From: Bdellovibrionales bacterium
GTDB lineage: Bacteria; Bdellovibrionota; Bdellovibrionia; Bdellovibrionales; UBA1609
Assembly: GCA_965203935.1 (NCBI GenBank)
Contig: OZ241921.1
Coordinates: forward strand, 839,354-903,353
Reading direction: 5' to 3'
Length of the DNA: 64,000 nt
How positions within the stretch are numbered: position 1 is the first letter of the stretch; the number at the start of each line of letters is the position of its first letter. The translations under genes and the position numbers were made by a program. Shown piece by piece: positions 7,387-59,922 of the stretch. The notes beneath the pieces are model-generated. The model was not told the origin of the DNA and did no database searches. It saw only the letters and a program-made list of their open reading frames with translations.

Positions 7387-9912
7387 TCAAAGAATGTCCG
7401 CCCTCGCCCCCCATTGATCCTTGGCCTCTGTATCAGCTCCTTCGTCAATCAACAGTCTGACTGTTTCTATATGGCCTGCGATTGCGGCCTCCATCAAAGC
7501 CGTGCGCCCCGACTTATCCTTAGCGTTTATATCAGCTCCTTCGTTAATCAACAGTCTGATTGTTTCTATATGGCCTTCGCTTGCGGCCTCCATCAAAGCC
7601 GTGCGCCCCGATTTATCCTTAGCGTTTATATCAGCTCCTTCGTTAATCAACAGTCTGACTGTTTCTATACGGCCTGCGATTGCGGCTTTCATCAAGGCTG
7701 TTTTTCCCTGTTCATCCTTGGCGTTTATATCAGCTCCTCTGTTAATTAATATTCTGACTGTTTCTATATGGCCAAGCATTGTGGCCACCATCAAGACTGT
7801 TCTTCCTGTCTCATCTTTGTAGTCTATATAGGTCCCTCTATCCAAGAGCAGTGTAAGAAAGTTGATGTCCTGTTTGTTGTATATGAGATAAGTCCACATA
7901 ACCCTTGGATCCAAAATCTGATTCCAAGGGGAATCTAAAATTTGCTTAAACTGAGACAGATCCTGGGCTGATGTTATTTCATTGTCAGTAAGCTTCGTTA
8001 TAAACTCTTTTCTGTAACCCACAGCGTTTTTCCAGTTGCTCATTTCTCCTATTAAAGCCTCTTTTTCTTTTTCTGAAAATAAAGATGTTTTTTCCTCTAA
8101 AAATGAAATATGCCGTGTTGTCTTTTGCGGTGGCTCTATTGTCAGAGAATACTCTATCAGAGAATATTCTATCAGAGAATACTCTATTAAAATGTAAAAG
8201 GCCTTCTTTCTTACTTTAAAGGAAAAATTTTTGTTTTGCATAACAAAGTTCAGATGATTATCCACATACTGATCTGACAGGTTAAGCTCCTTTATCTGTC
8301 TCATAGTAAGAAGATTATTTAAAAATTGTATCTGATCTTCATCTTTTGTGGATTTTTCCAAAAGCAACACAGGCTCGTATAAAGAGAGAATACTTAATTC
8401 AGGGTGGGCTTTTCTAAGTGCGGGAATCTCCCCAGGGCTTATTTTAACTCCCCCTAAGGGCACAGCCTCAAACTTCAAAAGCTGTAGCCGGCTGTAGGCT
8501 CTGGAATAACCTGTCTCTGCATATAATAAGTCTTTATACTTATGCTCATGCAGTTTAAAATCGTTAAGGTTTTTTGAGAGATCAGGCAAAATTTCCCTTC
8601 CCACATAATCACGCACTGAAGCCTCATTGGAAAGTCCGTTTAGGTCTCCCACATCCTTTGGCAGGGCCAGTATATAGCCTTGTTCCTTAAGGCTTACACT
8701 AATTCCCTGTAGCACGGCCTTAAGCTTTTGCGGTTCTATATCCTGAATTTTATCCACAAAAGCGGTTTTGACTGTCAGGCCCTTTGGGGTTTGAGCTTCC
8801 CCCAGCGCTAAAGTGACATGGCCTGAGGATTCATGACGGCTGTTTGTCAAAGTAAAGTACAAAAAATTAGGATCCAAAGCCGTCTCAAAATAAGTATCGG
8901 TGGCACAGTCTCCACTAAGGCAAGATCTAAAAGGCGACTCTTGAATGGAAAGTGGCCTTAGTCTTAAAACTTCTGCTCCTCTAACAGCAGTATCCGGCTG
9001 ATTTTGAATCTCCTCTGTGATTTGAGTTAAATATTTTGTTTTATCCGGTATTTTGGCCTTAAAGTGTGCTTTAAGCTCTGCAAAATGCCCGGTAAAGCCC
9101 AGTTCAAAAGCCAAAATATCCTGTTCGTTTAAAATACTGCGCAAAGCGTTTAAGCTTTCATGTGGGTCTTTGCTTTTTAAAAGCTCCACCCAAGTTTTGT
9201 TTCCAAAGCCTGCGGTATGAATTAAAACCGCCATGACTTGAGAAATATTTTGAATAATATCTTTGGTGGAGGAGTCAGCTCCTGCTGTTTCTAAAGAATG
9301 TCTTATCTTTTCCAAAGCTTTGTATAAGGCGACAGTTCTTTCCCGGTAAGGCTTTGAGTCATCTTTTATAAAATCGCGAAGTTTTTTATTTAAAGCTGTG
9401 CTGTCCAAATAGGCTGTAAGATCTTTATTGCGCTTTTTCCTAAGAGCCTTTTTTTCCTCTTTGCTTAAAGAAGAGTCTTCTATCTTGCTGAATCCCAGTG
9501 TTTTAGCCCAAAAGCCCAAGTTTGCCTCCACTTGAAACAGGCTGTTTCGCAATCTGGAGCTTTCGTTTCGGAAAGAGGAAATAAAGTCTTTAAGACTGTT
9601 AGGTGTTTCTTTTTTTGTTACAGTAAACTCCAGAATTTGCTCTCTTACAATCAGCTTGGAAAGCTCAGGATATTGGTTTAAGATATTTAGGACATCCTGT
9701 AGGGAATAATCAGTGTCTCTTTGGTAAGGGGTTTTGTTTATGAAATAGAGTTTAAAGAGTGGTTCCTGCCCTTCCTTTAAAACAAGCTGTTTGGTCATGG
9801 CCTCATAAAAGGAATCCGGATCAGAAAAGACTTCCTCACAAGGGCCTGTTGCATAAGCTGGAAACAGGTAGCAGAAAAAAAGTACAGCTTTTAAACCGCG
9901 CATAATAATCAT
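7387..9912 (-). CDS. secreted ankyrin-repeat protein, paralogue 2 (tandem duplicate of 3749-6490)
   Basis: The ORF track gives 7387-10146. The start was reassigned to the ATG at 9912 (MIIMRGLKAVLFFCYLFPAYA), which aligns with the signal peptide of paralogue 1. C-terminal ANK repeats are present. It contains an in-frame 15-bp x3 repeat (IEYSL x3) at 8143-8187. Confidence 0.7.
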   Translation of the reverse strand: MIIMRGLKAVLFFCYLFPAYATGPCEEVFSDPDSFYEAMTKQLVLKEGQEPLFKLYFINKTPYQRDTDYSLQDVLNILNQYPELSKLIVREQILEFTVTKKETPNSLKDFISSFRNESSRLRNSLFQVEANLGFWAKTLGFSKIEDSSLSKEEKKALRKKRNKDLTAYLDSTALNKKLRDFIKDDSKPYRERTVALYKALEKIRHSLETAGADSSTKDIIQNISQVMAVLIHTAGFGNKTWVELLKSKDPHESLNALRSILNEQDILAFELGFTGHFAELKAHFKAKIPDKTKYLTQITEEIQNQPDTAVRGAEVLRLRPLSIQESPFRSCLSGDCATDTYFETALDPNFLYFTLTNSRHESSGHVTLALGEAQTPKGLTVKTAFVDKIQDIEPQKLKAVLQGISVSLKEQGYILALPKDVGDLNGLSNEASVRDYVGREILPDLSKNLNDFKLHEHKYKDLLYAETGYSRAYSRLQLLKFEAVPLGGVKISPGEIPALRKAHPELSILSLYEPVLLLEKSTKDEDQIQFLNNLLTMRQIKELNLSDQYVDNHLNFVMQNKNFSFKVRKKAFYILIEYSLIEYSLIEYSLTIEPPQKTTRHISFLEEKTSLFSEKEKEALIGEMSNWKNAVGYRKEFITKLTDNEITSAQDLSQFKQILDSPWNQILDPRVMWTYLIYNKQDINFLTLLLDRGTYIDYKDETGRTVLMVATMLGHIETVRILINRGADINAKDEQGKTALMKAAIAGRIETVRLLINEGADINAKDKSGRTALMEAASEGHIETIRLLINEGADINAKDKSGRTALMEAAIAGHIETVRLLIDEGADTEAKDQWGARADIL

Positions 9913-26946: not shown

Positions 26947-28335
26947 ATGAAAAAATCAGTAAAAGCGTTTGTGTTTATTATTACCACAGTTCTTGCCTCA
27001 CTACCGGTTGTTGGCAATTCCACTGATAGCTATTCACCACCGGCTGTCAGCGATTTGTCTACAGAGCAAATAGCGATTGTTTCACGGCTTTCCACCGTCC
27101 TGCCTGAAAAAAGAAAGTTTTACACTCATTTTTATTATAATTTGGACTGGGCCATCACCGGCCAATCAGGGCCGGGAATTTTATCAAGCAGTCTTTGGCA
27201 CGCCTTTCAAAAAGGCAAACTAATAGATGACAATAAAAACTTTGAAAAGGGTGAGCAGAACTTTAAAGAGGCTGTGCAGACAGCGTTTTCAGAAACAGAA
27301 AGAACACCCGCAGGAAAAGGAATATATGCTTCAGAAAGTATTATATCCTCCGCTTCGCATACTAATACTCTTGTGGAGGTGGAAGTGGCGCAGGGGTTAA
27401 GATATCTGGATTTAACAGATTTTAAGGTGACGAATGCATTAAAAAGAGCCGGCATTAGTGTACAGGATGTGTACAAGCTTGGTGATGTGTCACTTAAAAT
27501 GACGAACCACTTTTCAGCGAAGAGGCAATGGGTTTTGAAAGATATGGAGAAAGTGTCACTTTCCCCTTTTAGGTTGAGTGCAAAAAGCTTGGTGGAGATT
27601 CAGAATTTACTGCGCCCTATATTTAGTGGTAATTTTAAAAGCTCTCAAGACGATGCAGTCAGAATTATCAAACTGCTGATCCATAACTCCAAATCAGAGG
27701 TGGAACAGCTGATTAGAGTGTTCAATACCACTCCTGCTTTATGGAACCACTTAAACGCTGATTCACAGGATCGGGTGATAGACTCTTTGGTAAGAAACCA
27801 TGTCGAATCAGTGGCGGGGGGAATAGTGTTGTTCCAGAGCTTTCGTAGCGCCGCCACAAATCATGAAAGTGTAAGCATGCTGTTAGAAGGTTTCACAACT
27901 CATAAGCTGACCCCTAAAACCAATGGAGACCAGCTCCCTCAGACCTTTGAGAACACAGGTGTAATTTTTTCTGAAAAGCATGTACTAAGAATATTATCAG
28001 AGGCCAAAAGGCATATTTACTCAGTGGCGGAGGGAATATTTTTAATAAGCTATATGGATTCCGCAAGTCTTTCCGGCCCCATGCAAACACTGCTGGAAAG
28101 GGTATTTCACAAAACACTTTCGCGTGTTAAATCTCTTGAGGATGGCATTTTATTGTTGGACTTCTTAAAGGAAAAGCGACCTCATTTATATATCGTTAAA
28201 AGGGGTGATATTATAGACAAAATATCTCCTTATGTAGATAATATGTCGGTTATGAGACAATTGTCCAATCATATTAGTGATGCGTCTGTTGCGGATATAC
28301 TTCGCCGGCAAAAATGTAGCTTTGGCTTTGAATAA
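26947..28335 (+). CDS. secreted hypothetical protein (462 aa)
   Basis: Signal peptide MKKSVKAFVFIITTVLASLPVVGNS. No known catalytic motif. Confidence 0.5.
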   Translation: MKKSVKAFVFIITTVLASLPVVGNSTDSYSPPAVSDLSTEQIAIVSRLSTVLPEKRKFYTHFYYNLDWAITGQSGPGILSSSLWHAFQKGKLIDDNKNFEKGEQNFKEAVQTAFSETERTPAGKGIYASESIISSASHTNTLVEVEVAQGLRYLDLTDFKVTNALKRAGISVQDVYKLGDVSLKMTNHFSAKRQWVLKDMEKVSLSPFRLSAKSLVEIQNLLRPIFSGNFKSSQDDAVRIIKLLIHNSKSEVEQLIRVFNTTPALWNHLNADSQDRVIDSLVRNHVESVAGGIVLFQSFRSAATNHESVSMLLEGFTTHKLTPKTNGDQLPQTFENTGVIFSEKHVLRILSEAKRHIYSVAEGIFLISYMDSASLSGPMQTLLERVFHKTLSRVKSLEDGILLLDFLKEKRPHLYIVKRGDIIDKISPYVDNMSVMRQLSNHISDASVADILRRQKCSFGFE

Positions 28336-28377: not shown

Positions 28378-29271
28378 CTACAAAAAATTTTTTAATTCTT
28401 TTCTTATAAATTCCGGCTGGGCAAAGGCGGATTGGTGCAGACAGCTGTTGTAGTAAGATAAATTCCAGCCCTTGGTTTCTTTTTTAGTTTTTTCTTTCTT
28501 AAAATCCTTTAAAGGGTGATATTTTTTGGAAGCCAAAGCAAAAGACCAAAGCCCCCCCGGATACACCGTGTTGCTGTAGTTGTATAAAGCGGTTATAGGA
28601 AACACAGACTTAAGAGATTGCAGGATAAATTTTTGTGTCGCTATCTCAAAAAAAGGGGACTCCGCCTGAACCACCAATATCCCTTCATCGGACAGAAGGT
28701 GAAATATATCCTTGTAAAAAGCTTTGCTAAACAAATCCCGGGCCGGCCCGAAAGGATCGGTGGAGTCCACTAAGGCCACATCAAACTTTTGATTTGTTTG
28801 TTTTACGAACTTAACTCCGTCTTGAACTTTTAAGTTTAGTCTTGGATCTTGAAAAGAACAGGATATTTTTGGGAAATATTTTTTAGCTGTTTCCACAACC
28901 ATTTTGTCAATCTCCACCAGCACACAATGAGTAAGGTTTTTGTGGCGAAGCGCCTCGCGGGCGGCCCCTCCATCCCCCCCTCCGATGATCAGCGCTTTTT
29001 CAGGTTTGGGGTGCGTAAACAAAGGAACATGAGCCATCATTTCGTGGTACACAAATTCATCTTTCTCACTTAACATGACAATGCCGTCGTTAAGCAGGAT
29101 GCGCCCGTGCCCTTTAGTTTCCACCACATCAATATACTGATAGGCGCTTTTGCCGGAAAACAAAACTTTCCGACATCGAAAGCGTGTGCCGTAGTAATTT
29201 CTGTGGCGCTCCTCCACCCATAGATCCATGGGTGAAGTTTTTTCGTCCCAGTGTGGTTTTTTTTGTGTCAT
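28378..29271 (-). CDS. speE: spermidine synthase
   Basis: YHEMMAHVPLFTHPKPEKALIIGGGDGGAAREALRH and VEIDKMVVETAKKYFP match the spermidine synthase signature. The start overlaps the stop of the upstream AdoMetDC gene. Confidence 0.9.
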   Translation of the reverse strand: MTQKKPHWDEKTSPMDLWVEERHRNYYGTRFRCRKVLFSGKSAYQYIDVVETKGHGRILLNDGIVMLSEKDEFVYHEMMAHVPLFTHPKPEKALIIGGGDGGAAREALRHKNLTHCVLVEIDKMVVETAKKYFPKISCSFQDPRLNLKVQDGVKFVKQTNQKFDVALVDSTDPFGPARDLFSKAFYKDIFHLLSDEGILVVQAESPFFEIATQKFILQSLKSVFPITALYNYSNTVYPGGLWSFALASKKYHPLKDFKKEKTKKETKGWNLSYYNSCLHQSAFAQPEFIRKELKNFL

Positions 29272-30248
29272 ATTGCTTTTTCTCCTTTGCAGTTTAATTC
29301 AAAAGCCGGGCGGGGTGTATCAAAGGATGTAAAAAAACCGGAAAAATCCACTTTGTATCCACACTCCAAGTTTCTGCTGAAATAAGAAGATCGGACAAAA
29401 GAGGAATCTTTCGGGTGTTTAAAGCTTTCCTCCTTCTCGTTAAGTCCGGCGGAAAACACAATAATATCAAAACTTAAGGGCTTGAAAACAGAAAGTACGG
29501 TTGTTGCGATTTCAGTTACGGATATGTCCATGATATTGGTTTCAAAGCTGACATAAAAGCCCGGCTCCTGAGGGGTTATGTGAATGGTGTAATATTGTGA
29601 CTTTCCCACAAGCCCGTTTAGGGAGTAGCCCATCGGCTCAAAAAAGTGGTCGTCCACTTGTGCATTGTCAAAAATCTTGCTTAAATTTAAGTGATTTCTT
29701 ATTTGCTCCGCTGAAGAGGCTGTAAAAAAAAGGTTTTTTATATGATCGTCCAGATCATACATTAGTATTTCAATGGTGCGGTCGGGCCGGCCCGATTGGT
29801 AACAGCCGTCGGAATGAAAAAGATAAAAATGATGTTCATCCGGCGCGCCAAACAGGTAGGCTTTGCCTTTTATTTTTTTATTGATTTTTCTTAAATCGTC
29901 CATAAAAGAGCTGTTTTGTTTATAAGGAAAAAACTCGTTTTTTCGCTGATAAAACAAAAGCTCTGTATCCGATTTTTTTAAACTTCGAGAAAGCTGTAAA
30001 AGGGCTTTAACCAAAGAGGTTTCTCCGCAGGTGAGCATAAGAAGACGATGATCCCAGACAAACAAACTGGATTCAGAAAGTATATAAGCGTCACAAAAGG
30101 AATTGGAAAAGCGGGACACTAAACGCGCGCCCGCGCGGGCGCAAAGTTTTTTCCAAAAAGCTTCGGGCCGGTTTCTCAAAGGTTCCCTTACCGGTGACAA
30201 CACAAGCTCCAGTTTTTTTTCAGAACCTTCAAATAAAAGTTGTTTCAT
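29268..30248 (-). CDS. S-adenosylmethionine decarboxylase proenzyme, eukaryotic type (class II, Glu-Ser autoprocessing site)
   Basis: FEGSEKKLELV matches human FEGTEKLLEVW. AYILSESSLFVWDHRLLMLTCGETSLVKAL matches [30 protein letters not shown], including the ESS pyruvoyl-forming site. TIEILMYDLD matches TLEILMSELD. GYSLNGLVGKSQYYTIHITPQEPGFYVSFETN matches [32 protein letters not shown]. Confidence 0.85.
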   Translation of the reverse strand: MKQLLFEGSEKKLELVLSPVREPLRNRPEAFWKKLCARAGARLVSRFSNSFCDAYILSESSLFVWDHRLLMLTCGETSLVKALLQLSRSLKKSDTELLFYQRKNEFFPYKQNSSFMDDLRKINKKIKGKAYLFGAPDEHHFYLFHSDGCYQSGRPDRTIEILMYDLDDHIKNLFFTASSAEQIRNHLNLSKIFDNAQVDDHFFEPMGYSLNGLVGKSQYYTIHITPQEPGFYVSFETNIMDISVTEIATTVLSVFKPLSFDIIVFSAGLNEKEESFKHPKDSSFVRSSYFSRNLECGYKVDFSGFFTSFDTPRPAFELNCKGEKAI

Positions 30249-30409
30249 TGGTTCTTATCCTCCGCTTTTTTTCGCGGTCTGCTGTTTAATCAGCTTTTTT
30301 TACGGATGACTGAAAAACTCTTGTTTGCCTTACCTTTTTTATTTAAGCTGTATTTTTACATATTCCCAAGGTCATACAGAAAAACCCCTGTCAGTGCAAG
30401 CTTAAAGCT

Positions 30410-31267
30410 ATGATAGATGTTGTAATACCCACTTTTAACCGCGCGCGCTTTCTCGGAAGAGCCATCCGGTCGGTGTTCCGGCAGACCTTTCGCCAATATA
30501 TCTTGTGGGTGGTGGATGATGGCTCCACAGACAATACTTCCCCGGTCTTAAATACATGGCAGGCTCTGTTCCCCCAGGGACAAATGCGGGTGATAAAGCT
30601 TGTAGGCAACAAAGGCGTAAGCTTTGCCCGTAATACAGGCATTCGGGCGGGCTGTGCGCCCTATCTGGCTTTTTTGGACTCAGATGACGAGTGGATGACA
30701 GATAAACTGGCCCGGCAAATGGAGTGGGTGAAAAAACATCCTGTGCGCCCCTTAATCCACACAGAGGAAATATGGATACGAAACGGCCGGCGGGCCAATC
30801 AAAAGAAAAAACACCAAAAAAAAGGGGGGCGTGTTTTCATGCACAGCTTGGAGTTTTGTCGGATCAGCCCTTCCTCCGCTATGATAAAAAGATCGTTTTT
30901 AAACAGTATTGGCTTGTTTCGTGAGGATTTTCCTGTGTGTGAGGATTATGAGCTGTGGCTCAGAGTAAGCGCGCGGGCGGAGGTGGGCTTTGTCAAACAG
31001 CCTTTGATTATCAAGTACGGTGGCCATGCGGGTCAGCTGTCTAAAAAATATAAGGCTGTGGATGAATGGCGTGTGCGTGCTATGGCCCTCTTGCGGGACA
31101 GTCCTTTTATCAGCGGGGAGGAAAAACAACAACTGATTGAAACTTTAAGAAAAAAATGCCGGATCCTTCTTAAAGGCTACAAAAAACACAGTAACTTCGC
31201 CCACTTTGCGGAAATACAGAAAATTTATGAAGACACTCAAAAAAAAGACCTTGTTTTGCAAGCTTAG
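30410..31267 (+). CDS. family 2 glycosyltransferase
   Basis: MIDVVIPTFNRARFLGRAIRSVFRQTF..WVVDDGSTDNT and DSDDEW are classic GT-A/GT2 motifs. Confidence 0.8.
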   Translation: MIDVVIPTFNRARFLGRAIRSVFRQTFRQYILWVVDDGSTDNTSPVLNTWQALFPQGQMRVIKLVGNKGVSFARNTGIRAGCAPYLAFLDSDDEWMTDKLARQMEWVKKHPVRPLIHTEEIWIRNGRRANQKKKHQKKGGRVFMHSLEFCRISPSSAMIKRSFLNSIGLFREDFPVCEDYELWLRVSARAEVGFVKQPLIIKYGGHAGQLSKKYKAVDEWRVRAMALLRDSPFISGEEKQQLIETLRKKCRILLKGYKKHSNFAHFAEIQKIYEDTQKKDLVLQA

Positions 31268-32728: not shown

Positions 32729-34686
32729 CCCGACTTCGACACAACACTATGAGTTAAAAAATATTTTGAGGTTTTTTTAGACCAGCCGGGTTGTTTTTGT
32801 TTGGTTTTGAGTGGTAAAATCAGTAAAAATTAAAGTTGTGTTCCCGACCCCGACCTTTACTTCCTCGATCTCTTCTGGAACAGTAAAAACATGTTTATCA
32901 AGGTCACTGAAAAAATCTCAAGCAAAAACCGAAAAATTAAATCTTTCCGGATTATGGAATCGGTACGCAAAGGCTCAAAAACCATTCATAAAACAGTGCG
33001 CTTTGTGGGATCCTCCACGAACCCGGATATCATCAAGTCTTTGGAACAGATATCTCATAATCTGATCGTAAAGCTCAGCAATGACCGACAGCCCGCCCTT
33101 CCCGGCATGGCCAAAGTCATCTACAGCAAAGAATCTCAGTACATAAACAAAAAACCAAAACAACAGAAGAAAAAACAAAAGCCTGTTTCTATCTTCTCCC
33201 TTAAAAAGCCACAGGAAACAGCACGCATCCAGCACGGCATTAAAGGAGTATGCGGGGCTGTCTATGAACAGTTAGGCTTTCATACCCTCATACAAGACAC
33301 CAACAAAGATCAACAATGGAACAACATCTTAAAATACTGTGTCCTTGCCAGAGTGGCCCACCCGGATTCCAAAAGAAAAACAGTAGACACTTTGGCAGAG
33401 GATTTTAACGAGACTGTTCCTTTGGAAAAAATGTATCGCATGATGGACAGGCTTTATCCACGCATAGAAAAAGCAAAAGACATGGCGGCCAAAAACACCC
33501 TGAGCCTGTTTAACCAAGAAGTGGATATTCTTTTCTTTGATGTCACCACCCTTTACTTTGAAAGCTTTGAAGAAGACGATACAAGACAGTTCGGCTTCAG
33601 CAAAGATAAAAAGTTCAACGAAACACAAGTGGTCTTAGCCCTTATCACCAACCAAGAAGGTCATCCCCTAAGCTATGAGCTGTTTCCCGGAAGCACAAGC
33701 GAAGGATCCACCCTTATTGCCACAGTTCAGAGATTAAAACAAAGATTTACAGTCAAAAACGCCGTATTGGTGGCCGACAGAGCCATGTTTAATGAGCAAA
33801 ACCTTACACTCATGGAGGAAGAGGGGATTCAATATGTGGTGTCCGCCAAGTTAAAGTCCCTGCCCAAAAGCAAGAAAGATGAGATTTTAGACAAAAACTT
33901 AAAATCTTCCACTGTCTCAGAAGACCCACACAGGGTAAAGATAAAAGAGCTTGAGTATAAACAAAGAAGACTCATTATAAGCCACTCAGAAAAAAGAGCC
34001 AAAAAGGATGAGGCGGACAGACTAAGACTCATTAAAAGACTGATGAAAAAAGTAAAGAACAAGCAAATCCCCATAAAAAGCCTTATCCCCAATCATGGCA
34101 CCAAAAAATACATCACAGTTCAAAAAACCAAAGCTACACTCAATGAACAAAAAATAGCTGAAGACAGCCGTTGGGACGGCCTGCATGGACTTATTACCAA
34201 CATGAAAGATAAGCCCCCCCAAGAACTCCTCACCCGATACAGACAGCTCTGGAAGATAGAAGAGGCTTTTCGTGTGTGCAAACACACTCTTAAGATGAGA
34301 CCCATTTACCACTGGAAGAGGAAAAGAATCGAGGCTCATATTGCTATATGCTTCTTGGCTTACTCGCTTTCTTACACTATGAAACACAGAATGGAGCAAA
34401 GAGGACTGAACTTCAGTATCCGAAAGATGAGAGAGATTTTAAAAAGAGATCAATACAGTATTATAGAGGATGCAAATAAAAATCTCTATCGTATGCCCTC
34501 TAAATCCACAGAACCGATACAGGCTATATACGAGGCTTTGGGGCTTAAAAGAACTTCTCAATTTATTCCTTTTTCCTAAGCCCTGTTAAACTCCCTTCTT
34601 AAATGTTCTTACAAGATGTGTGGCCCCAAGAATTTATAAGTTATTGATATCACTCACTTAATGCCTTGCGTTGTGTCGAAGTCGGG
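32729..34686 (+). mobile_element. IS4/IS1634-family insertion sequence, copy 1 (1958 bp, about 19-bp terminal inverted repeats cccgacttcgacacaacac)
   Basis: IRL cccgacttcgacacaacac at 32729. IRR gcgttgtgtcgaagtcggg ends at 34686. A single 562-aa transposase ORF lies inside. Confidence 0.8.
32891..34579 (+). CDS. DDE transposase, IS4 superfamily (IS1634-like)
   Basis: LFFDVTTLYFES (D1, DxT..yFE), VLVADRAMFN (D2) and YRQLWKIEEAFRVCK (Y-2-R-3-E-6-K signature). The 562-aa length is typical of the IS1634 group. Confidence 0.75.
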   Translation: MFIKVTEKISSKNRKIKSFRIMESVRKGSKTIHKTVRFVGSSTNPDIIKSLEQISHNLIVKLSNDRQPALPGMAKVIYSKESQYINKKPKQQKKKQKPVSIFSLKKPQETARIQHGIKGVCGAVYEQLGFHTLIQDTNKDQQWNNILKYCVLARVAHPDSKRKTVDTLAEDFNETVPLEKMYRMMDRLYPRIEKAKDMAAKNTLSLFNQEVDILFFDVTTLYFESFEEDDTRQFGFSKDKKFNETQVVLALITNQEGHPLSYELFPGSTSEGSTLIATVQRLKQRFTVKNAVLVADRAMFNEQNLTLMEEEGIQYVVSAKLKSLPKSKKDEILDKNLKSSTVSEDPHRVKIKELEYKQRRLIISHSEKRAKKDEADRLRLIKRLMKKVKNKQIPIKSLIPNHGTKKYITVQKTKATLNEQKIAEDSRWDGLHGLITNMKDKPPQELLTRYRQLWKIEEAFRVCKHTLKMRPIYHWKRKRIEAHIAICFLAYSLSYTMKHRMEQRGLNFSIRKMREILKRDQYSIIEDANKNLYRMPSKSTEPIQAIYEALGLKRTSQFIPFS

Positions 34687-34943: not shown

Positions 34944-36892
34944 CCTGACTTCGACACAACACTATGAGTTAAAAAATATTTTGAGGTTTTTTTAGACCAG
35001 CCGGGTTGTTTTTGTTTGGTTTTGAGTGGTAAAATCAGTAAAAATTAAAGTTGTGTTCCCGACCCCGACCTTTACTTCCTCGATCTCTTCTGGAACAGTA
35101 AAAACATGTTTATCAAGGTCACTGAAAAAATCTCAAGCAAAAACCGAAAAATTAAATCTTTCCGGATTATGGAATCGGTACGCAAAGGCTCAAAAACCAT
35201 TCATAAAACAGTGCGCTTTGTGGGATCCTCCACGAACCCGGATATCATCAAGTCTTTGGAACAGATATCTCATAATCTGATCGTAAAGCTCAGCAATGAC
35301 CGACAGCCCGCTCTTTCCGGCATGGCCAAAGTCATCTACAGCAAAGAATCTCAGTACATAAACAAAAAACCAAAACAACAGAAGAAAAAACAAAAGCCTG
35401 TTTCTATCTTCTCCCTTAAAAAGCCACAGGAAACAGCACGCATCCAGCACGGCATTAAAGGAGTATGCGGGGCTGTCTATGAACAGTTAGGCTTTCATAC
35501 CCTCATACAAGACACCAACAAAGATCAACAATGGAACAACATCTTAAAATACTGTGTCCTTGCCAGAGTGGCCCACCCGGATTCCAAAAGAAAAACAGTA
35601 GACACTTTGGCAGAGGATTTTAACGAGACTGTTCCTTTGGAAAAAATGTATCGCATGATGGACAGGCTTTATCCACGCATAGAAAAAGCAAAAGACATGG
35701 TGGCCAAAAACACCCTGAGCCTGTTTAACCAAGAAGTGGATATTCTTTTCTTTGATGTCACCACCCTTTACTTTGAAAGCTTTGAAGAAGACGATACAAG
35801 ACAGTTCGGCTTCAGCAAAGATAAGAAGTTCAACGAAACACAAGTGGTCTTAGCCCTTATCACCAACCAGCAAGGTCATCCCCTAAGCTATGAGCTGTTT
35901 CCCGGAAGCACAAGCGAAGGATCCACCCTTATTGCCACAGTTCAGAGATTAAAACAAAGATTTACAGTCAAAAACGCCGTATTGGTGGCCGACAGAGCCA
36001 TGTTTAATGAGCAAAACCTTACACTCATGGAGGAAGAGGGGATTCAATATGTGGTGTCCGCCAAGTTAAAGTCCCTGCCCAAAAGCAAGAAAGATGAGAT
36101 TTTAGACAAAAACTTAAAATCTTCCACTGTCTCAGAAGACCCACACAGGGTAAAGATAAAAGAGCTTGAGTATAAACAAAGAAGACTCATTATAAGCCAC
36201 TCAGAAAAAAGAGCCAAAAAGGATGAGGCGGACAGACTAAGACTCATTAAAAGACTGATGAAAAAAGTAAAGAACAAGCAAATCCCCATAAAAAGCCTTA
36301 TCCCCAATCATGGCACCAAAAAATACATCACAGTTCAAAAAACCAAAGCCACACTCAATGAACAAAAAATAGCTGAAGACAGCCGTTGGGACGGCCTACA
36401 TGGACTTATTACCAACATGAAAGATAAGCCCCCCCAAGAACTCCTCACCCGATACAGACAGCTCTGGAAGATAGAAGAGGCTTTTCGTGTGTGCAAACAC
36501 ACTCTTAAGATGAGACCCATTTACCACTGGAAGAGGAAAAGAATCGAGGCTCATATTGCTATATGCTTCTTGGCTTACTCGCTTTCTTACACTATGAAAC
36601 ACAGAATGGAGCAAAGAGGACTGAACTTCAGTATCCGAAAGATGAGAGAGATTTTAAAAAGAGATCAATACAGTATTATAGAGGATGCGAACAAAAATCT
36701 TTATCGTATGCCCTCTAAATCCACAGAACCGATACAGGCCATATACGAGGCTTTGGGGCTTAAAAGAGTGTCTGACTTTGTATCCGGTTCCTGAAGTTTT
36801 ACCGGACTTCAGTCTTAAAATGTGTGCCCCCGTAAAAACTCATAAGTATATGATATCACTCACTTAATGCCTTGCATTGTGTCGAAGTCGGG
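34944..36892 (+). mobile_element. IS4/IS1634-family insertion sequence, copy 2 (1949 bp)
   Basis: IRL cctgacttcgacacaacac at 34944. IRR gcattgtgtcgaagtcggg ends at 36892. Near-identical to copy 1 except the last ~100 bp before the IRR, which also changes the transposase C-terminus. Confidence 0.8.
35106..36794 (+). CDS. DDE transposase, IS4 superfamily (IS1634-like), copy 2
   Basis: About 99% identical to 32891-34579 until the last 10 codons (..LGLKRVSDFVSGS versus ..LGLKRTSQFIPFS). Confidence 0.75.
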   Translation: MFIKVTEKISSKNRKIKSFRIMESVRKGSKTIHKTVRFVGSSTNPDIIKSLEQISHNLIVKLSNDRQPALSGMAKVIYSKESQYINKKPKQQKKKQKPVSIFSLKKPQETARIQHGIKGVCGAVYEQLGFHTLIQDTNKDQQWNNILKYCVLARVAHPDSKRKTVDTLAEDFNETVPLEKMYRMMDRLYPRIEKAKDMVAKNTLSLFNQEVDILFFDVTTLYFESFEEDDTRQFGFSKDKKFNETQVVLALITNQQGHPLSYELFPGSTSEGSTLIATVQRLKQRFTVKNAVLVADRAMFNEQNLTLMEEEGIQYVVSAKLKSLPKSKKDEILDKNLKSSTVSEDPHRVKIKELEYKQRRLIISHSEKRAKKDEADRLRLIKRLMKKVKNKQIPIKSLIPNHGTKKYITVQKTKATLNEQKIAEDSRWDGLHGLITNMKDKPPQELLTRYRQLWKIEEAFRVCKHTLKMRPIYHWKRKRIEAHIAICFLAYSLSYTMKHRMEQRGLNFSIRKMREILKRDQYSIIEDANKNLYRMPSKSTEPIQAIYEALGLKRVSDFVSGS

Positions 36893-39603: not shown

Positions 39604-42522
39604 TTAAATACCGGCTTGAAATTGAAAGCCCAAATAAAAATTGTTTTCCGGTTGCTTGTTCAGCCCTCCCTCCTTGGCTGGGGATCTTTGTTTTGTCTCT
39701 TGAGTGAAAAAAGACAGAAAAGAGTTTAAAGAATGGCTCCAGCCGGAATAAACATGGATTTTAGCCTTCACTTTATGATGAATAAGGATGCCGGTTTTTA
39801 TTCCGAAAGTCCATTCCACAAAATGAGGGTACTCTTGTTTGTCGTTATCCAGAAAACGAAGATACCTGCCTCCCAAAGTGGGAGTCAGGCTTATTAAAGA
39901 AAGGGGAAAGCGCGCAAAGTAAAGAGGGACTTCAATAAATTTTTGAAGCTTCAGTCCGGCGGAAAGATAGTCGTTTGTCTCTTCAAATATTCTTCTCCCG
40001 ACAGGAAAACTCAGAGAATTTAAAAATTCCATTCTTCTGTCTGCGCTTAAAGGGAGGAAATACCGAAAAGGCAGTGACTTGGGCTTTAGGGCGCGTTGAT
40101 AGGTAAAAAAAGGTGTTGTGTAAAACTCCCAGCCCCAATTTACAGTATAGTGGGATTTTGTTTTTAAGCGCCAGCTGTAAAGCTCATTTGAGAGGCCGAG
40201 CCGGTACTGTAAAGAGACTTCAGTAAAAAACTTTCTGTGAAAATCAAAGTTTTGACTGTACTTTCTCCCGTATTGCAGTTGTAAAGAAGGCTCCATACTT
40301 AAGTGATAAGTCGTATGATTTTGCAGTTGATTTTGCCGGGGCTTTAGTTCTAAAGAGGATAAGGCGTTTTTCCAATACAAACGGGACTTCCAGTATCCGG
40401 TTTTAAAAAAAGGAAAAGAAAAGCCCTGGCTTAACTCATGAATATAAGCGTAAGTTCGGGAACCGGAAAAATTTTCAGGGCCTTCACTGTAAATATGCTG
40501 TATATCCCAAGACAGGCGGTACGCCTGATTTGTATACTTGCTTCGGATGGCCCAATTTTCATACGATGCCTGATAAGTGAACTGAATGGAGTTGTAGGCC
40601 ATTGGGTCGCTGAAAGTGATGCCGAAGGTGCCGTTATACCCTGTAATGGCATCGTAGAACCCCCCTAACTCCAGACCGTTAAAGCGGAGGCGCCAAAGAG
40701 AATAATAAGTGGAGTAAGAAATATCGTTTGAGCTTTTATAAGACGCTGTTTCTTCCGGCCGGGAGGAAACAAGTTTGGTCTGAGGAAAAGAGTAATCGTA
40801 AAAAGCCGGTGCTTCCGGCCGTTCCTGCAGAGGTATCATCTTATAGCTGTAAGAATCCGGCTCCAGTTCGCAGACCAAAAACCGGTCTTTATTTCCCCGC
40901 ACGGCGTTCACCACCACATCGGAAGAGGAAAGCCGGTAAATGCCCCCGCCTGGGATCCAGGCGAACAAGGAAGATCCGTACAAAGTGGCTGAAATAAAGT
41001 AGACAATTCCTTGTTCGTCTATTTCCACCGGCTTTCCGTAAAAGCCCTTGAATTGAAAAACAGGCTCTTTGTTTTTATACATTACCCGCCGGTCCCCGTC
41101 CTGTTTAAAGTAATACACTTTTCCATCGGGGCCGAAAAGGGCGGGGGAGTGGGTATAATCATAAAACTTTCCGTTTAGCAGAAGGCGAAAGCCGCTCATG
41201 TTGTCTGAGGTGTCAATCGAAAGAACATCATTGCCTCTGATATCCTGCACGCTTTGGGATTTGTATTTATTTATCATATACATACCTTCAGAAAAAAGCC
41301 CGTAAGCTCTTTGTGTGGTGTTTATTTTATCGGACGAGGAGACATAATATTCATTTCCGATTTTAAACACCTTTCCTGATTTGAATACTTTTCTTTGTCT
41401 TTTCCATTTGCCGGTTTTGAGGTTAAAAACACTTAAAACGGGAGTGCTTTTTAAGTCCGGGCTGAGAAAAAAAATCTCATCGCCTTTTTTATTAAACGGC
41501 GGGCAGGTTCTGCTGTGGAACAAAGCAGGCTCCTTAGACTGGTTTTGCTGACCGGCCAGAGGAAGATAAGTTTGAATATAATGGTTTGTCAGGCTTTCAA
41601 AACTGCGGTCAAAAGTGGATTCAAAAGCGCTTTTTACAGAAACAAAAGCCAAAGGAAACATAAAATACTCAGCGTGGTTTTTAAACATGCTGTTAATGGT
41701 TTTCAGCTTGTATTTTTTTAAAAGAGAGTTAAAAAAATACGCGCCGTGAAAGTAAGGCTGTTGCGTGCTGAAAGTGTCTTCTGTAATATTGACAAGATAA
41801 TTTTTTATAAAGTGATTTGTATTTTTGAATTTGTGTTTTATTTGGGAAAAAACAAGAGCGCGCACAAAACCGCTGTAAAGCCTCCCCCCCGGCGCAAATA
41901 AAGACTCGTTAAGTGTGGCGTGCCCCTCCAGAAGAAACAAAGGCATAACCATATTGACATTAAAAAAAACAGGCAGAGGAATAAAAATAACTTCTGAGTT
42001 TCCGAATATTTTGTTCAGGTATTTTAAGTGTGGTGAAGTTTGCCCCAACTGAAATACATGGGCCATTTCATGTGCGATAACTGTATCCGCCCAAGAAATG
42101 TTGGACATATTTTGCATCATATCCACGCCCGTGGGGTAGAACAACGCTCTTAAAAAAGGCACAGCGGAGGTGGAGGCGTTGGAAATTTGATTTTGGGAGG
42201 AGGCGAAAATATATACGGGCTTTTGTTTTAATTTGCTGTTAAAAAACTCTTGATATACATCATTGTAATAATGAAGTTTTTTGTGTAAAAGATTTTTTTT
42301 GTCCCCTTCTAAAAAGCTTTCACTGAAGATAAAAGAAAAAGAAGGGTTATTGTGTATGTAGTAGTCTGTATCGCTTGGTTGAACCTTCGTTCGGCCGGGC
42401 GCGCAAAAGGGGAGCGAAAACAATATAAAGCACAAAATAGGGGCAAAACGAAATCGTGGACGCACAAGATACGCGAGGTATGCAGGGCGCACAAGGTGGG
42501 AGTTACAGCTTGGTTTTTTCAT
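39604..42522 (-). CDS. large (972 aa) exported protein with an HExxH zinc-metallopeptidase-like motif
   Basis: Hydrophobic N-terminus. Only one HExxH motif is present (TVIAHEMAHVFQLGQ). The rest is a long Tyr/Gly/Ser-rich region suggestive of beta-rich structure. Function unknown. Confidence 0.45.
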   Translation of the reverse strand: MKKPSCNSHLVRPAYLAYLVRPRFRFAPILCFILFSLPFCAPGRTKVQPSDTDYYIHNNPSFSFIFSESFLEGDKKNLLHKKLHYYNDVYQEFFNSKLKQKPVYIFASSQNQISNASTSAVPFLRALFYPTGVDMMQNMSNISWADTVIAHEMAHVFQLGQTSPHLKYLNKIFGNSEVIFIPLPVFFNVNMVMPLFLLEGHATLNESLFAPGGRLYSGFVRALVFSQIKHKFKNTNHFIKNYLVNITEDTFSTQQPYFHGAYFFNSLLKKYKLKTINSMFKNHAEYFMFPLAFVSVKSAFESTFDRSFESLTNHYIQTYLPLAGQQNQSKEPALFHSRTCPPFNKKGDEIFFLSPDLKSTPVLSVFNLKTGKWKRQRKVFKSGKVFKIGNEYYVSSSDKINTTQRAYGLFSEGMYMINKYKSQSVQDIRGNDVLSIDTSDNMSGFRLLLNGKFYDYTHSPALFGPDGKVYYFKQDGDRRVMYKNKEPVFQFKGFYGKPVEIDEQGIVYFISATLYGSSLFAWIPGGGIYRLSSSDVVVNAVRGNKDRFLVCELEPDSYSYKMIPLQERPEAPAFYDYSFPQTKLVSSRPEETASYKSSNDISYSTYYSLWRLRFNGLELGGFYDAITGYNGTFGITFSDPMAYNSIQFTYQASYENWAIRSKYTNQAYRLSWDIQHIYSEGPENFSGSRTYAYIHELSQGFSFPFFKTGYWKSRLYWKNALSSLELKPRQNQLQNHTTYHLSMEPSLQLQYGRKYSQNFDFHRKFFTEVSLQYRLGLSNELYSWRLKTKSHYTVNWGWEFYTTPFFTYQRALKPKSLPFRYFLPLSADRRMEFLNSLSFPVGRRIFEETNDYLSAGLKLQKFIEVPLYFARFPLSLISLTPTLGGRYLRFLDNDKQEYPHFVEWTFGIKTGILIHHKVKAKIHVYSGWSHSLNSFLSFFTQETKQRSPAKEGGLNKQPENNFYLGFQFQAGI

Positions 42523-50852: not shown

Positions 50853-51098
50853 ATCAACCAAAACAGCCTTTTTAAGCAAATTTAACATAAAAAATCTACT
50901 TGACTAATGTAATTTTTACACCCTATCTCTTATTTTCGCCATTTTTAGTATTTTTATGACTTTATATGTGATATAAGAACTTCATGTTTGTGTCCTTTGT
51001 CCTTGACACCTAATTTTTAGGCTGTCTTCTGAAAAGGAGGTAAAGTGCAAAAGTTTTCAAAAATAGGGGCCACTTCAGTAAGAGAGGGAATAGACATT

Positions 51099-58389: not shown

Positions 58390-59922
58390 ATGATGGGTAC
58401 TGTGCAGAACTATAAACTTGTGATTTTTTATTGTATAATAACTTTGTTATTTATACATAAGGGTTTTTCCTCTGAAATTCCTTATGAACAATGCGAAGGA
58501 AGAAAAAAAGAATGGACAGATCAAATGGTGGCTTTGGCCGATCAGTTTACGCTTTACCGGTCTCAAAATGATACGGAAGCTCAAGATTGCTCTGATTGTT
58601 CCTCGGCGGGGGCGCATGACAACTCTTATCCTCTTCCGTTGGAGATAAAAGAGCTGAAAGGCGCTGTTCATAAGGCGCGGGATATTCCTCCTGTGTGTTT
58701 TTTTGCGGGCGCGCTCAGGGGAGTGGGTTTATCCACAAAAAAAAACTATAACTGTGAACACCGGGATTCAGTATGGCCGGGCAGATTTGAAGGCAAACGC
58801 AAAAAGAAAACAAGGCCTTGCCTTAACAAAGCTTATATTGACATGACCGCAAAAGCTTTTAACGAAACAGCCGATTGTTTTGGCTTTTCGCCTCAGGAAA
58901 AACAACAAATATTTGCTCTTTTTAACCATGAGTCAAGGTTTATTTTAAACGCCAAAAGTAACAGTAAAGCCCGCTGTTACGGGCAAATAACCATGCCTCT
59001 TATAAAAGACATCAATAAAAATATCTATTACAGAAACAGAGGATTCAAGTTTGGGCATATTTACGAAAATGCCGTTAACAACTGCCCCGGTTTGGAAGAT
59101 AAAGTGGCCCCTCCCAGCATTATCAATCAAAAAGAGCGCAGTCCCAAACGGCTTAAAAGATTGCACAAAAATGCCCCCATTACCTGTAACATGACTCACG
59201 ACCCTTATACCTGCTTATTTTATTCTATGTTCAATGTAAAAATAAACCAAGAATATTTTGATAACCGTTACAGTGATACACCTAATTATATGGGAAGGCG
59301 GGAGCCACCTCCAAAAATGGAAGAAGATTTTTTATTTCCCATTCAGTTAAATGAAATGTTGGTTGTAAAAGGCCGGGTAACAATAGATGGACGGGAAGAG
59401 GAAGTGGAATGGGTCTTTTGGGACACTTCTGAAGCTTACGATGTTTTTAACCGGGTGAAATATAATGTCCAAAATTTGGAGATAAAAAAAACAGCTGTAT
59501 TTGACAAAGAAACATTAAGAAGCGCATTCACGCACTACGCCCATAACGGCGGTAACTCCGCTGTTAAAACACACTTAACAACTTTTATTGAGGAAACAAA
59601 AAGGCAGGTTGCAAGCGGAAAATACTGCTCTAAAAATCCACAATGCCAAACAAGAAGAGACGCCCTCATCAAAGGCAGGGCCTTGAGCGCGAGTGACTTA
59701 CAGGATTTATTTAGCGGTTATGTGCGTCGAAATAGAAGAAACTTTAACAACCCACAGGAGGTTTCAAAGTTTTCGCATAAAATTGCATCAGATATGAATT
59801 TTATTCATGATATTAAATCTGCCGAAAGACCTGACATTATGAATCAATTCAATCTGACTGATACATTTCAACAAGAGGTAAACGGCAAATGTCCCAAGGT
59901 AAAAGACATATACCCATATTAA
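58390..59922 (+). CDS. hypothetical exported Cys-rich protein (510 aa)
   Basis: N-terminal hydrophobic segment LVIFYCIITLLFIHKGFS. About 20 Cys residues. No recognisable domain. Confidence 0.45.
   Translation: MMGTVQNYKLVIFYCIITLLFIHKGFSSEIPYEQCEGRKKEWTDQMVALADQFTLYRSQNDTEAQDCSDCSSAGAHDNSYPLPLEIKELKGAVHKARDIPPVCFFAGALRGVGLSTKKNYNCEHRDSVWPGRFEGKRKKKTRPCLNKAYIDMTAKAFNETADCFGFSPQEKQQIFALFNHESRFILNAKSNSKARCYGQITMPLIKDINKNIYYRNRGFKFGHIYENAVNNCPGLEDKVAPPSIINQKERSPKRLKRLHKNAPITCNMTHDPYTCLFYSMFNVKINQEYFDNRYSDTPNYMGRREPPPKMEEDFLFPIQLNEMLVVKGRVTIDGREEEVEWVFWDTSEAYDVFNRVKYNVQNLEIKKTAVFDKETLRSAFTHYAHNGGNSAVKTHLTTFIEETKRQVASGKYCSKNPQCQTRRDALIKGRALSASDLQDLFSGYVRRNRRNFNNPQEVSKFSHKIASDMNFIHDIKSAERPDIMNQFNLTDTFQQEVNGKCPKVKDIYPY

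Follow-up and report, generated by a model that had tools for sequence, protein, structure and literature searches.

Analysis of the window, that is, the whole 64,000-nucleotide stretch of DNA examined here, revealed two overlapping genes on the minus strand whose products are assigned to spermidine synthesis. The first, amd (29268-30248), codes for a class 2 S-adenosylmethionine decarboxylase (AdoMetDC) proenzyme of 326 aa, an assignment based on a Pfam match, a PDB match, an AF2 model and individual residues. The second, speE (28378-29271), codes for a bacterial-type spermidine synthase (polyamine aminopropyltransferase) of 297 aa, assigned from NCBIfam models, PDB relatives and motifs. Reading of the sequence showed that the amd stop codon and the speE ATG share four bp (ATGA, 29268-29271). 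A Shine-Dalgarno sequence, GGAGGA (30258-30263, minus strand), lies 9 nt 5' of the amd ATG and represents a bacterial translation signal; the amd reading frame is unbroken and intron-free. A second one, AAGGAG (29282-29287, minus strand), falls inside the 3'-terminal part of amd and precedes the speE ATG by 10 nt; it supports translational coupling of the two genes.

On the other side of amd a divergent gene coding for a GT2 family glycosyltransferase of 285 aa was identified (30410-31267, plus strand; Pfam PF00535, E 4.6e-27). The 161 bp that separate amd from the GT2 gene (30249-30409, no strand assigned) are presumed from their position to carry the promoter(s) of the operon. A scan for promoters and terminators gave no convincing candidate; one sigma-70-like match, on the minus strand at 30438-30410, is weak (9/12) and lies at the border with the GT2 reading frame, overlapping its start. 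No putrescine-producing gene was found within the window. The ANK and LRR proteins mentioned in an earlier note on this DNA are present in the window, as are two IS4-family transposases.

Family, fold and predicted active sites of Amd and SpeE

Class 2 AdoMetDC is a core eukaryotic polyamine enzyme and a drug target, and each of its two halves resembles a class 1b subunit. Amd matched the Pfam family PF01536 (SAM_decarbox) with an E value of 5.8e-65 (220 bits, cut-off 22.2), the match spanning residues 5-295 of 326 and profile positions 3-333 of 343, and it matched the human AdoMetDC proenzyme in the PDB at E 9e-36. The AF2 model of Amd (pLDDT 88.6) was aligned by Foldseek with the human structure 1msv over 318 columns, with TM scores of 0.84/0.86, while the class 1b enzyme of T. 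maritima (1vr7/1tlu) aligned with one half of the model only, over 114 columns. The model thus has the class 2 architecture, in which two alpha/beta-sandwich halves are fused in one chain, and the agreement goes far beyond what chance would give. These results agree with the earlier note, in which the reading frame was described as a class 2 enzyme unlike the small SpeD, and the motifs quoted there (MKQLLFEGSEKKLEL, AYILSESSLFVW and YYTIHITPQEPGFYVSFETN) were all found in the translation. The score of Amd against NCBIfam TIGR00535 (SAM_DCase) was 168.4 bits, below the equivalog cut-off of 233.15; since this model was built around eukaryotic sequences, the low score points to a divergent bacterial subfamily. 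Amd is therefore a divergent member of class 2 and no close copy of a eukaryotic enzyme.

Self-cleavage of Amd is predicted between Glu59 and Ser60 (E67 and S68 in the human enzyme), with Ser60 giving rise to the pyruvoyl group. The residues L57-S58-E59|S60-S61, S209 and H223 were invariant in all sequences compared, bacterial-type (169/169) as well as eukaryotic (58/58), S209 and H223 being equivalent to the human processing residues Ser229 and His243. Residues F6, E7, E10, C74 and F203 of Amd match human F7, E8, E11, C82 and F223. Among the 169 bacterial-type sequences, Amd included, 165-169 retained the processing and catalytic residues and 155 the F7 equivalent. Amd therefore has in common with the human, plant and trypanosome enzymes (1jl0/1msv, 1mhm and 5tvf) the fold, the ES|S site and the residues F7, E8, E11, C82, F223, S229 and H243.

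Amd is only about 30% identical to the eukaryotic enzymes, which are also longer (median length 372 aa, against 313 aa for the bacterial ones), and amd, unlike their genes, lies in an operon, is preceded by a Shine-Dalgarno sequence and has neither introns nor an upstream ORF. Four positions differ from the human enzyme. Human Glu247 is a ribose-binding residue; it was present in 57 of the 58 eukaryotic sequences, while its equivalent is Gln227 in Amd and Gln in 104 of the 169 bacterial members. Cys226, invariant among the eukaryotes, is Met in Amd and variable across the bacterial clade. Because Glu247 is replaced by Gln and Cys226 is not kept, the handling of the substrate by Amd may be altered. 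The third position, human L13, is occupied by Lys12 in Amd, by Arg in potato and by Lys in many protists, and the fourth, human K80, is L or I in the bacterial enzymes. The potato Arg mimics putrescine. Lys12 together with the K80 to L/I replacement was considered as a bacterial-specific sign of putrescine independence and was rejected as a signature of the clade, because R or K occurs at position 13 in 39 of the 58 eukaryotic sequences and I or L at position 80 in 27 of them.

The partner protein exceeded the equivalog cut-offs, with 352.8 bits against NF002010 (polyamine aminopropyltransferase, cut-off 260) and 304.6 bits against TIGR00417 (speE, cut-off 249.55). It carries PF17284 (the N-terminal tetramerisation domain) and PF01564 (the catalytic domain), and the motifs GGGDGG and DSTDP were found in its translation. 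Its best solved relatives were those of T. maritima (1inl, 262 bits) and B. subtilis (1iy9, 256 bits), while the eukaryotic spermidine synthases all scored 216 bits or less. By these matches SpeE is a predicted bacterial-type spermidine synthase with putrescine as the probable acceptor, the specificity of bacterial aminopropyltransferases being a matter that needs experimental determination (PMC11107197). The overlap of the decarboxylase gene with speE in an operon, as it had been described earlier, was confirmed by the shared ATGA. The amd and speE genes appear to be a translationally coupled, ordinary spermidine-making pair, their activity being predicted.

Distribution and synteny of the bacterial class 2 genes

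The search for homologues of Amd yielded 1078 proteins, graded in identity from 100% to 40% and encoded on Mb-scale bacterial contigs. Relatives occurred in at least 473 GTDB species genomes, of about 185,600 GTDB species. The carriers belonged mostly to the Bdellovibrionota and also included Shewanella, Ferrimonas, Pokkaliibacter and some Elusimicrobia. Class 2 AdoMetDC is thus rare in bacteria overall, as the earlier note had said, but common within the Bdellovibrionota, where the description as uncommon does not hold. The organism of the window belongs to a lineage with reduced genomes (1.3-2.3 Mb) labelled 'Bdellovibrionales'. Clustered at 50% identity, the bacterial clade gives more than 150 clusters, each scoring at least 242 bits. 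When the bacterial profile was run against the 50%-representative library, no eukaryote was among the 150 matches listed, which were all bacterial-type at 242 bits or more.

Bacterial class 2 enzymes were reportedly found to be active in 2019 by Li, Kurihara, Kim, Liang and Michael, whose abstract is said to describe them as 'phylogenetically limited'. That some bacteria encode a class 2 AdoMetDC is stated in PMC10407285, which cites Li et al. (2019, Biochem J 476:2579). As far as those enzymes are described in that account, they represent the same two-domain architecture in a bacterial genome, and Amd of the window differs in coming from a reduced-genome 'Bdellovibrionales' MAG lineage and in being paired with a canonical stand-alone speE. 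The window Amd is thus an addition to the bacterial class 2 AdoMetDCs already described, while the bacterial clade as a whole is much broader than the wording 'some bacteria' in PMC10407285, or the reported 'phylogenetically limited', would suggest.

Cultured Shewanella, Ferrimonas and Bacteriovorax isolates also carry the operon, as do many complete MAG chromosomes. In 67 of 82 loci amd and speE were direct neighbours with the same orientation. The identity of SpeE followed that of Amd in the closest loci; over all 67 loci the Pearson r was 0.91 while the Spearman rho was only 0.41, indicating that the link between the two identities is driven by the closest relatives. The divergent GT2 gene adjoined amd in 28 related loci and was nearby in four more, down to an Amd identity of 41%, and a SpoU methylase gene lay downstream of the operon in 19 of 51 loci. 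Neighbours in 59 related loci were SpoU methylase, EVE-domain and LD-carboxypeptidase genes, and no putrescine-pathway gene was found beside the operon in any of the 59. In Shewanella the class 2 gene belongs to a different polyamine cluster, speE-speA-amd, which supports a polyamine role of the class 2 enzyme in bacteria. Fusions of a class 2 Amd with SpeE also occurred among the relatives (P0307, 620 aa, and P0343, 633 aa).

Proposed pathway and the substrate of Amd

From the residues and the gene pairing, a pathway may be proposed. Amd would be made as a 326-aa proenzyme and would cleave itself between Glu59 and Ser60, leaving Ser60 as a covalently bound pyruvoyl cofactor. The enzyme would then decarboxylate S-adenosylmethionine by means of the equivalents of human Cys82, Glu8, Glu11 and His243, with the equivalents of Phe7 and Phe223 stacking on the adenine, and SpeE would move the aminopropyl group from the decarboxylated S-adenosylmethionine onto putrescine, forming spermidine. 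Within the bacterial subfamily, amd has for a long time had a bacterial-type speE as its partner and has been inherited with its flanking genes.

The arrangement is like that of the speED operons with a class 1a or 1b SpeD (E. coli, T. maritima), in which AdoMetDC and spermidine synthase are likewise co-transcribed, while the decarboxylase of the window is the fused, two-domain class 2 form; moreover, amd precedes speE in the window while speE comes first in E. coli (PMC9992855). In the class 1b AdoMetDC-spermidine synthase fusions of Green et al. (2011), as these are cited in PMC12803844, the two activities are physically coupled, whereas in the window amd and speE are separate genes and the coupling consists of the 4-bp overlap.

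We asked whether Amd may instead be a neofunctionalised decarboxylase that keeps the pyruvoyl machinery but has a different substrate, for example arginine or ornithine, or whether its decarboxylated S-adenosylmethionine may serve a role outside polyamine synthesis, a role that has been suggested for certain bacterial AdoMetDCs. Arginine and ornithine decarboxylases have evolved from SpeD homologues more than once (PMC10407285), but the known cases belong to the class 1b lineage and not to class 2. The exchange of E247 for Q and the variable C226 in the bacterial clade, the score of Amd below the TIGR00535 cut-off and the lack of a putrescine source near the operon are all consistent with such a change. 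They are set against the retention in Amd of the adenine-stacking Phe residues and of all catalytic residues, and against the separate arginine decarboxylase in the Shewanella cluster. The tight and conserved coupling to a canonical speE that exceeds its cut-offs is the signature of a genuine AdoMetDC, linkage to speE having been used as a criterion for this purpose (PMC10407285). Neofunctionalisation of Amd is therefore regarded as improbable, and synthesis of spermidine by Amd and SpeE remains the preferred reading.

Phylogeny, composition and origin of amd

Phylogenetic trees were constructed by NJ on Scoredist and Kimura distances from 227 sequences, 169 bacterial-type and 58 eukaryotic, with 200 bootstraps. 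A eukaryote profile made from the human, potato and yeast enzymes gave only vertebrates, plants and Saccharomyces, and a kinetoplastid (T. cruzi) bait, used instead, yielded diverse protists; the 58 eukaryotic representatives are skewed to euglenozoans and protists retrieved with this bait. With both distance methods a single split separated the 169 bacterial-type sequences from the 58 eukaryotic ones (183/200 bootstraps). In the NJ tree Amd was sister to the sequence L003 (191/200) and fell within a 10-member clan of small-genome 'Bdellovibrionales' MAGs (200/200) and within a 14-member clan (191/200). The closest eukaryotic sequences were about 30% identical to Amd, while hundreds of bacterial relatives were 40-89% identical, and the smallest Scoredist distance from Amd to any eukaryote was 1.31.

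The composition of amd was compared with that of 40 window genes. Its GC content is 0.406 (window mean 0.418±0.038; z -0.33), its GC3 is 0.416 (mean 0.437±0.067; z -0.32) and its codon log-likelihood has a z of +0.30.

These data bear on the suggestion in the earlier note that amd, found alongside ANK/LRR proteins, could have been acquired from a eukaryotic host. In its favour, this kind of enzyme is elsewhere characteristic of eukaryotes, bacterial class 2 genes are held to be originally eukaryotic (PMC10407285), and the window also contains the effector-like ANK and LRR proteins and two IS4-family transposases. Both IS copies, however, are on one side of the operon and are absent there in a strain-variant contig that bears the operon. 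Moreover, amd is typical of its neighbours in GC, GC3 and codon usage (|z|<1); it is free of introns and preceded by a Shine-Dalgarno sequence of the bacterial kind; its partner SpeE is bacterial-type; and the operon with its upstream GT2 gene is syntenic through the clade. The closest relatives of Amd are bacterial proteins, the human enzyme being 30% identical, and the tree of eukaryotic and bacterial class 2 enzymes, proposed in the note together with the codon comparison, nested Amd in a bacterial subclade at 200/200. A bacterial placement with normal codon usage is the outcome that the note itself had named as refuting a host-derived transfer. A recent transfer from a host is thus highly improbable. 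The same phylogeny, composition and synteny favour the other possibility named in the note, that the organism is one of the minority of bacteria having the class 2 enzyme, and we conclude that amd was inherited within a large, old and mainly Bdellovibrionota clade. Although the source is a metagenome assembly, it is hardly conceivable that assembly or binning wrongly placed a piece of eukaryotic DNA in a bacterial contig, since an identical amd is found in the same context in two independent assemblies (contigs of 2.03 Mb and 58 kb), the same operon occurs in the Shewanella, Ferrimonas and Bacteriovorax isolates and in many complete MAG chromosomes, and amd is native in composition and overlaps a bacterial speE by 4 bp.

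Taking these results together, it is very probable that the coupled amd-speE operon serves to make spermidine and that its amd belongs to an old bacterial class 2 subfamily with no recent capture from a host, the activity, the putrescine acceptor and the position of the promoter being predicted parts of this reading.

The deeper origin of the bacterial clade is a separate matter. In the literature, bacterial class 2 genes are treated as secondary acquisitions, and class 2 has been proposed to descend from a SpeD-SpeDC fusion of the Lentisphaerota or Omnitrophica (PMC10407285). The mean pairwise distance was 1.27 within the bacterial clade and 1.07 among the sampled eukaryotic enzymes. The attachment of the bacterial clan was unstable: it joined the branch between Euglenozoa with cryptophytes and the remaining eukaryotes in 59 of 200 bootstraps and the branch between opisthokonts and the rest in 27 of 200, many bootstraps being unresolved, so that no conclusion was drawn on where the clan joins the eukaryote tree. 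The bacterial sequences could represent a single clan with its stem deep in the eukaryote tree, never within a shallow eukaryotic group, and with a diversity equal to that of the sampled eukaryotes. This would fit a very ancient transfer, no later than the radiation of the sampled eukaryotes, or the reverse, in which the class 2 fusion originated in a bacterium like the Bdellovibrionota and the eukaryotic stem received it from there. We put this forward as a rather unlikely scenario; if the reverse direction were true, it would contradict the current view of class 2 as a eukaryotic invention.

For the window, the finding means that amd and speE form a predicted housekeeping spermidine operon, and the supposed tie to host-derived genes fails. 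In much of the Bdellovibrionota the 'eukaryotic' AdoMetDC belongs to the regular, syntenic equipment of polyamine metabolism, and its diversity in bacteria far exceeds what the wording of the literature suggests. The breadth of the bacterial clade also bears on the origin of the class 2 enzyme, and a rooted analysis that includes this clade would test the fusion-ancestor proposal of PMC10407285.

Identity of the Amd and SpeE proteins

Analysis of the window confirmed the two minus-strand ORFs described in the earlier note, amd (29268-30248(-), 326 aa) and speE (28378-29271(-), 297 aa), which overlap by 4 bases, the tetranucleotide ATGA holding both the speE start codon ATG and the amd stop codon TGA. 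Shine-Dalgarno sequences were found 9 nt ahead of amd (GGAGGA) and 10 nt ahead of speE (AAGGAG). A terminator scan picked up a 16-nt palindrome composed of G and C only, GCGCCCGCGCGGGCGC, inside the amd ORF at 30127-30142, the genome having about 41% GC; it occurs once in the window, where 0 occurrences are expected by chance, and codes for ARAGAR, the corresponding residues in the Amd relatives being KKAxAxI.

Comparison of Amd with the Pfam class 2 AdoMetDC family PF01536 gave an end-to-end match (E 5.8e-65), and a search of the PDB matched the human proenzyme (E 9e-36). The AlphaFold2 model of Amd, built from an alignment of 28 relatives (pLDDT 88.6, pTM 0.89), superposed on the uncleaved human proenzyme 1msv over 318 columns (TM 0.84/0.86), while the small class 1b enzyme of T. 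maritima matched one half of the model only (114 columns). Amd thus belongs to class 2, with two domains, and is not a SpeD; the enzyme class proposed earlier was upheld by the family match, the PDB match and the superposition alike. The NCBIfam TIGR00535 score of 168 bits lies under the 233-bit equivalog cut-off and Amd therefore represents a divergent subfamily.

Amd was aligned with the human, potato and yeast enzymes and then inspected in an alignment of 227 sequences. The cleavage site Glu59|Ser60 (human E67|S68), the processing residues Ser209 and His223 (S229, H243), the proton donor Cys74 (C82), Glu7 and Glu10 (E8, E11) and the adenine-stacking residues Phe6 and Phe203 (F7, F223) were all kept, and the listed processing and catalytic positions were invariant or nearly so across 169 bacterial-type and 58 eukaryotic sequences. 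Differences from the eukaryotic enzymes were also seen: Glu247, present in 57 of the 58 eukaryotes, is Gln in Amd and in 104 of the 169 bacterial members, while Cys226, invariant in eukaryotes, is not conserved on the bacterial side, and the median chain length is 313 aa for the bacterial-type as against 372 aa for the eukaryotic enzymes. Lys at human position 13 together with Leu/Ile at position 80 was considered as a bacterial signature of putrescine independence and was dropped because many protist enzymes have the same states.

SpeE exceeded two equivalog cut-offs, one for polyamine aminopropyltransferase and one for speE; its closest solved relatives came from T. maritima (262 bits), followed by B. 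subtilis at 256 bits, every eukaryotic enzyme reaching at most 216 bits, and the partner of Amd is bacterial-type. The conserved residues and the operon context suggest that Amd would process itself and decarboxylate AdoMet, and that putrescine would serve as the acceptor in the Amd-SpeE pathway. A putrescine source was not found within the window, nor was a putrescine-synthesis gene adjoining the operon downstream of speE found in the related loci examined.

Phylogeny and distribution of bacterial class 2 AdoMetDC

Two eukaryotic baits were checked before use: the potato bait was an exact match to PDB 1mhm, and the T. cruzi bait agreed fully (100% identity) with its database entry and scored 462 bits on the T. 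brucei structure. The eukaryotic baits returned vertebrates, plants, Saccharomyces, kinetoplastids, other euglenozoans, cryptophytes, stramenopiles, Polysphondylium and MMETSP protists. For two long contigs with "eukaryote-side" sequences, the surrounding genes confirmed a eukaryotic origin. The 227 de-replicated sequences were aligned with MAFFT L-INS-i, columns occupied in at least 70% of sequences were retained (308), and neighbour-joining trees were constructed on Scoredist and on Kimura distances.

Both trees showed a single split separating all 169 bacterial-type from all 58 eukaryotic sequences (bootstrap 183/200). Amd was sister to the homologue of related locus L003 (191/200), within a 10-member clan of small-genome Bdellovibrionales MAGs (200/200) that lies in a 14-member clan (191/200). 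The stem between the two groups was short (0.07 vs a median internal branch of 0.03), and pairwise distances averaged 1.27 in the bacterial clan and 1.07 in eukaryotes; between the two groups the mean was 1.59. The attachment point of the bacterial clan on the eukaryote tree was unstable, yet deep every time.

Searching a set of 5.8 billion proteins yielded 1078 Amd homologues, the best 120 of which ran gradually from 100% down to 40% identity, many on Mb-scale contigs, with lengths of about 305-330 aa (few outliers, 192–360 aa); the few with names were Bdellovibrionales. At least 473 genomes carried an Amd relative in a GTDB scan of one genome per species, the best 80 belonging to Bdellovibrionales, Pseudobdellovibrionaceae, Bacteriovoracaceae, Halobacteriovorax, Bacteriovorax and Oligoflexales, as well as cultured Shewanella, Ferrimonas and Pokkaliibacter and two Elusimicrobia MAGs. 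Among these representatives, which do not include the window genome, the nearest relative was 77% identical. In a 50%-identity representative library the AdoMetDC family comprised about 2,500 clusters, and the 150 top-scoring clusters for the bacterial profile were every one bacterial-type (at least 242 bits).

The window genome is 2.03 Mb, and the closest dozen relatives in the GTDB scan lie on complete Bdellovibrionales chromosomes of just 1.3-2.3 Mb; taken with the large ankyrin-repeat proteins and the LRR protein of the window, the lineage looks like a reduced-genome, possibly eukaryote-associated and seemingly uncharacterised branch of Bdellovibrionota.

Gene context and residence of the operon

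The gene order amd then speE on the same strand was found in 67 of 82 loci. Identity of SpeE tracked that of Amd in the closest relatives; over all 67 loci the Pearson coefficient was 0.91 and the Spearman coefficient 0.41, a much weaker rank relation. A family 2 glycosyltransferase gene (GT2, 30410-31267(+)), divergent from amd, was conserved upstream among loci L004-L082, being the immediate neighbour in 28 of the related loci and close by in a further 4, with Amd identity as low as 41%; its conservation could reflect a functional tie with polyamine metabolism, common regulation or merely old gene order. On the other side (L016-L080), more distant Bdellovibrionota had directly downstream of speE either a SpoU-family methylase on the same strand (19/51 loci) or an EVE-domain protein (7/51), and the closest relatives an LD-carboxypeptidase (4/51). 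Since flanks are kept on both sides across such divergence, these data indicate that amd-speE has long been resident in the lineage.

A different same-strand polyamine cluster, in the order speE, speA (biosynthetic arginine decarboxylase) and amd, was seen in Shewanella electrica (L048, 3137-6933). In two metagenomic proteins, P0307 (620 aa) and P0343 (633 aa), a class 2 AdoMetDC domain at the N-terminus is joined in one polypeptide to a spermidine synthase domain at the C-terminus; the AdoMetDC-aminopropyltransferase fusions treated in the literature consulted are class 1b, and class 2 fusions may be undescribed so far.

An ORF of 462 aa (26947-28335(+)), convergent to speE, was found among the fetched loci only on the window's own strain contigs; neither Pfam nor NCBIfam gave a match for it or for the ORFs at 14678-18295(-), 39604-42522(-) and 58390-59922(+) (1205, 972 and 510 aa).

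GC, GC3 and synonymous-codon likelihood of amd and speE all fell inside 1 standard deviation among 40 window genes, and amd is not foreign to the window genome. An identical Amd protein in the same gene context was carried by two independent contigs, of 2.03 Mb and 58 kb. Two tandem IS4-family DDE transposase genes (32891-34579(+) and 35106-36794(+)), 2.6 kb from the operon, encode proteins identical at 554/562 positions (99%); both are missing at this position in the 58-kb strain-variant contig L002, which points to recent IS activity, and relative L006 holds a 79%-identical copy. As both copies lie on one side, the operon is not bracketed by IS.

The earlier note had raised the possibility that amd, alongside ankyrin-repeat and LRR proteins, was acquired from a eukaryotic host. 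Such proteins are indeed present, three large ankyrin-repeat proteins (3749-6490(-), 7387-10146(-), 51045-53918(+)) and one LRR protein (18319-19785(-)); a link between them and amd found no support. Acquisition from a host fails on the firm position of Amd within a bacterial class II clade of long standing and on its normal codon usage, so that of the earlier interpretation the enzyme class and the operon stand and the host origin does not.

Bacterial class 2 enzymes within the AdoMetDC family

The bacterial class 2 sequences form a single clan that joins deep in the eukaryote tree. It seems improbable that the class 2 form began on the bacterial side or was transferred before the radiation of extant eukaryotes; the distance tree is unrooted and thus gives neither direction nor date for an ancient inter-domain transfer. 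Bacterial class 2 enzymes were reportedly found to be active by Li et al. 2019. Amd is an uncharacterised new example of this already described group; PMC10407285, with reference to Li et al. 2019, records class 2 AdoMetDC in part of the bacteria. The bacterial class 2 clade is far larger and more diverse than the wording "some bacteria" (PMC10407285) conveys.
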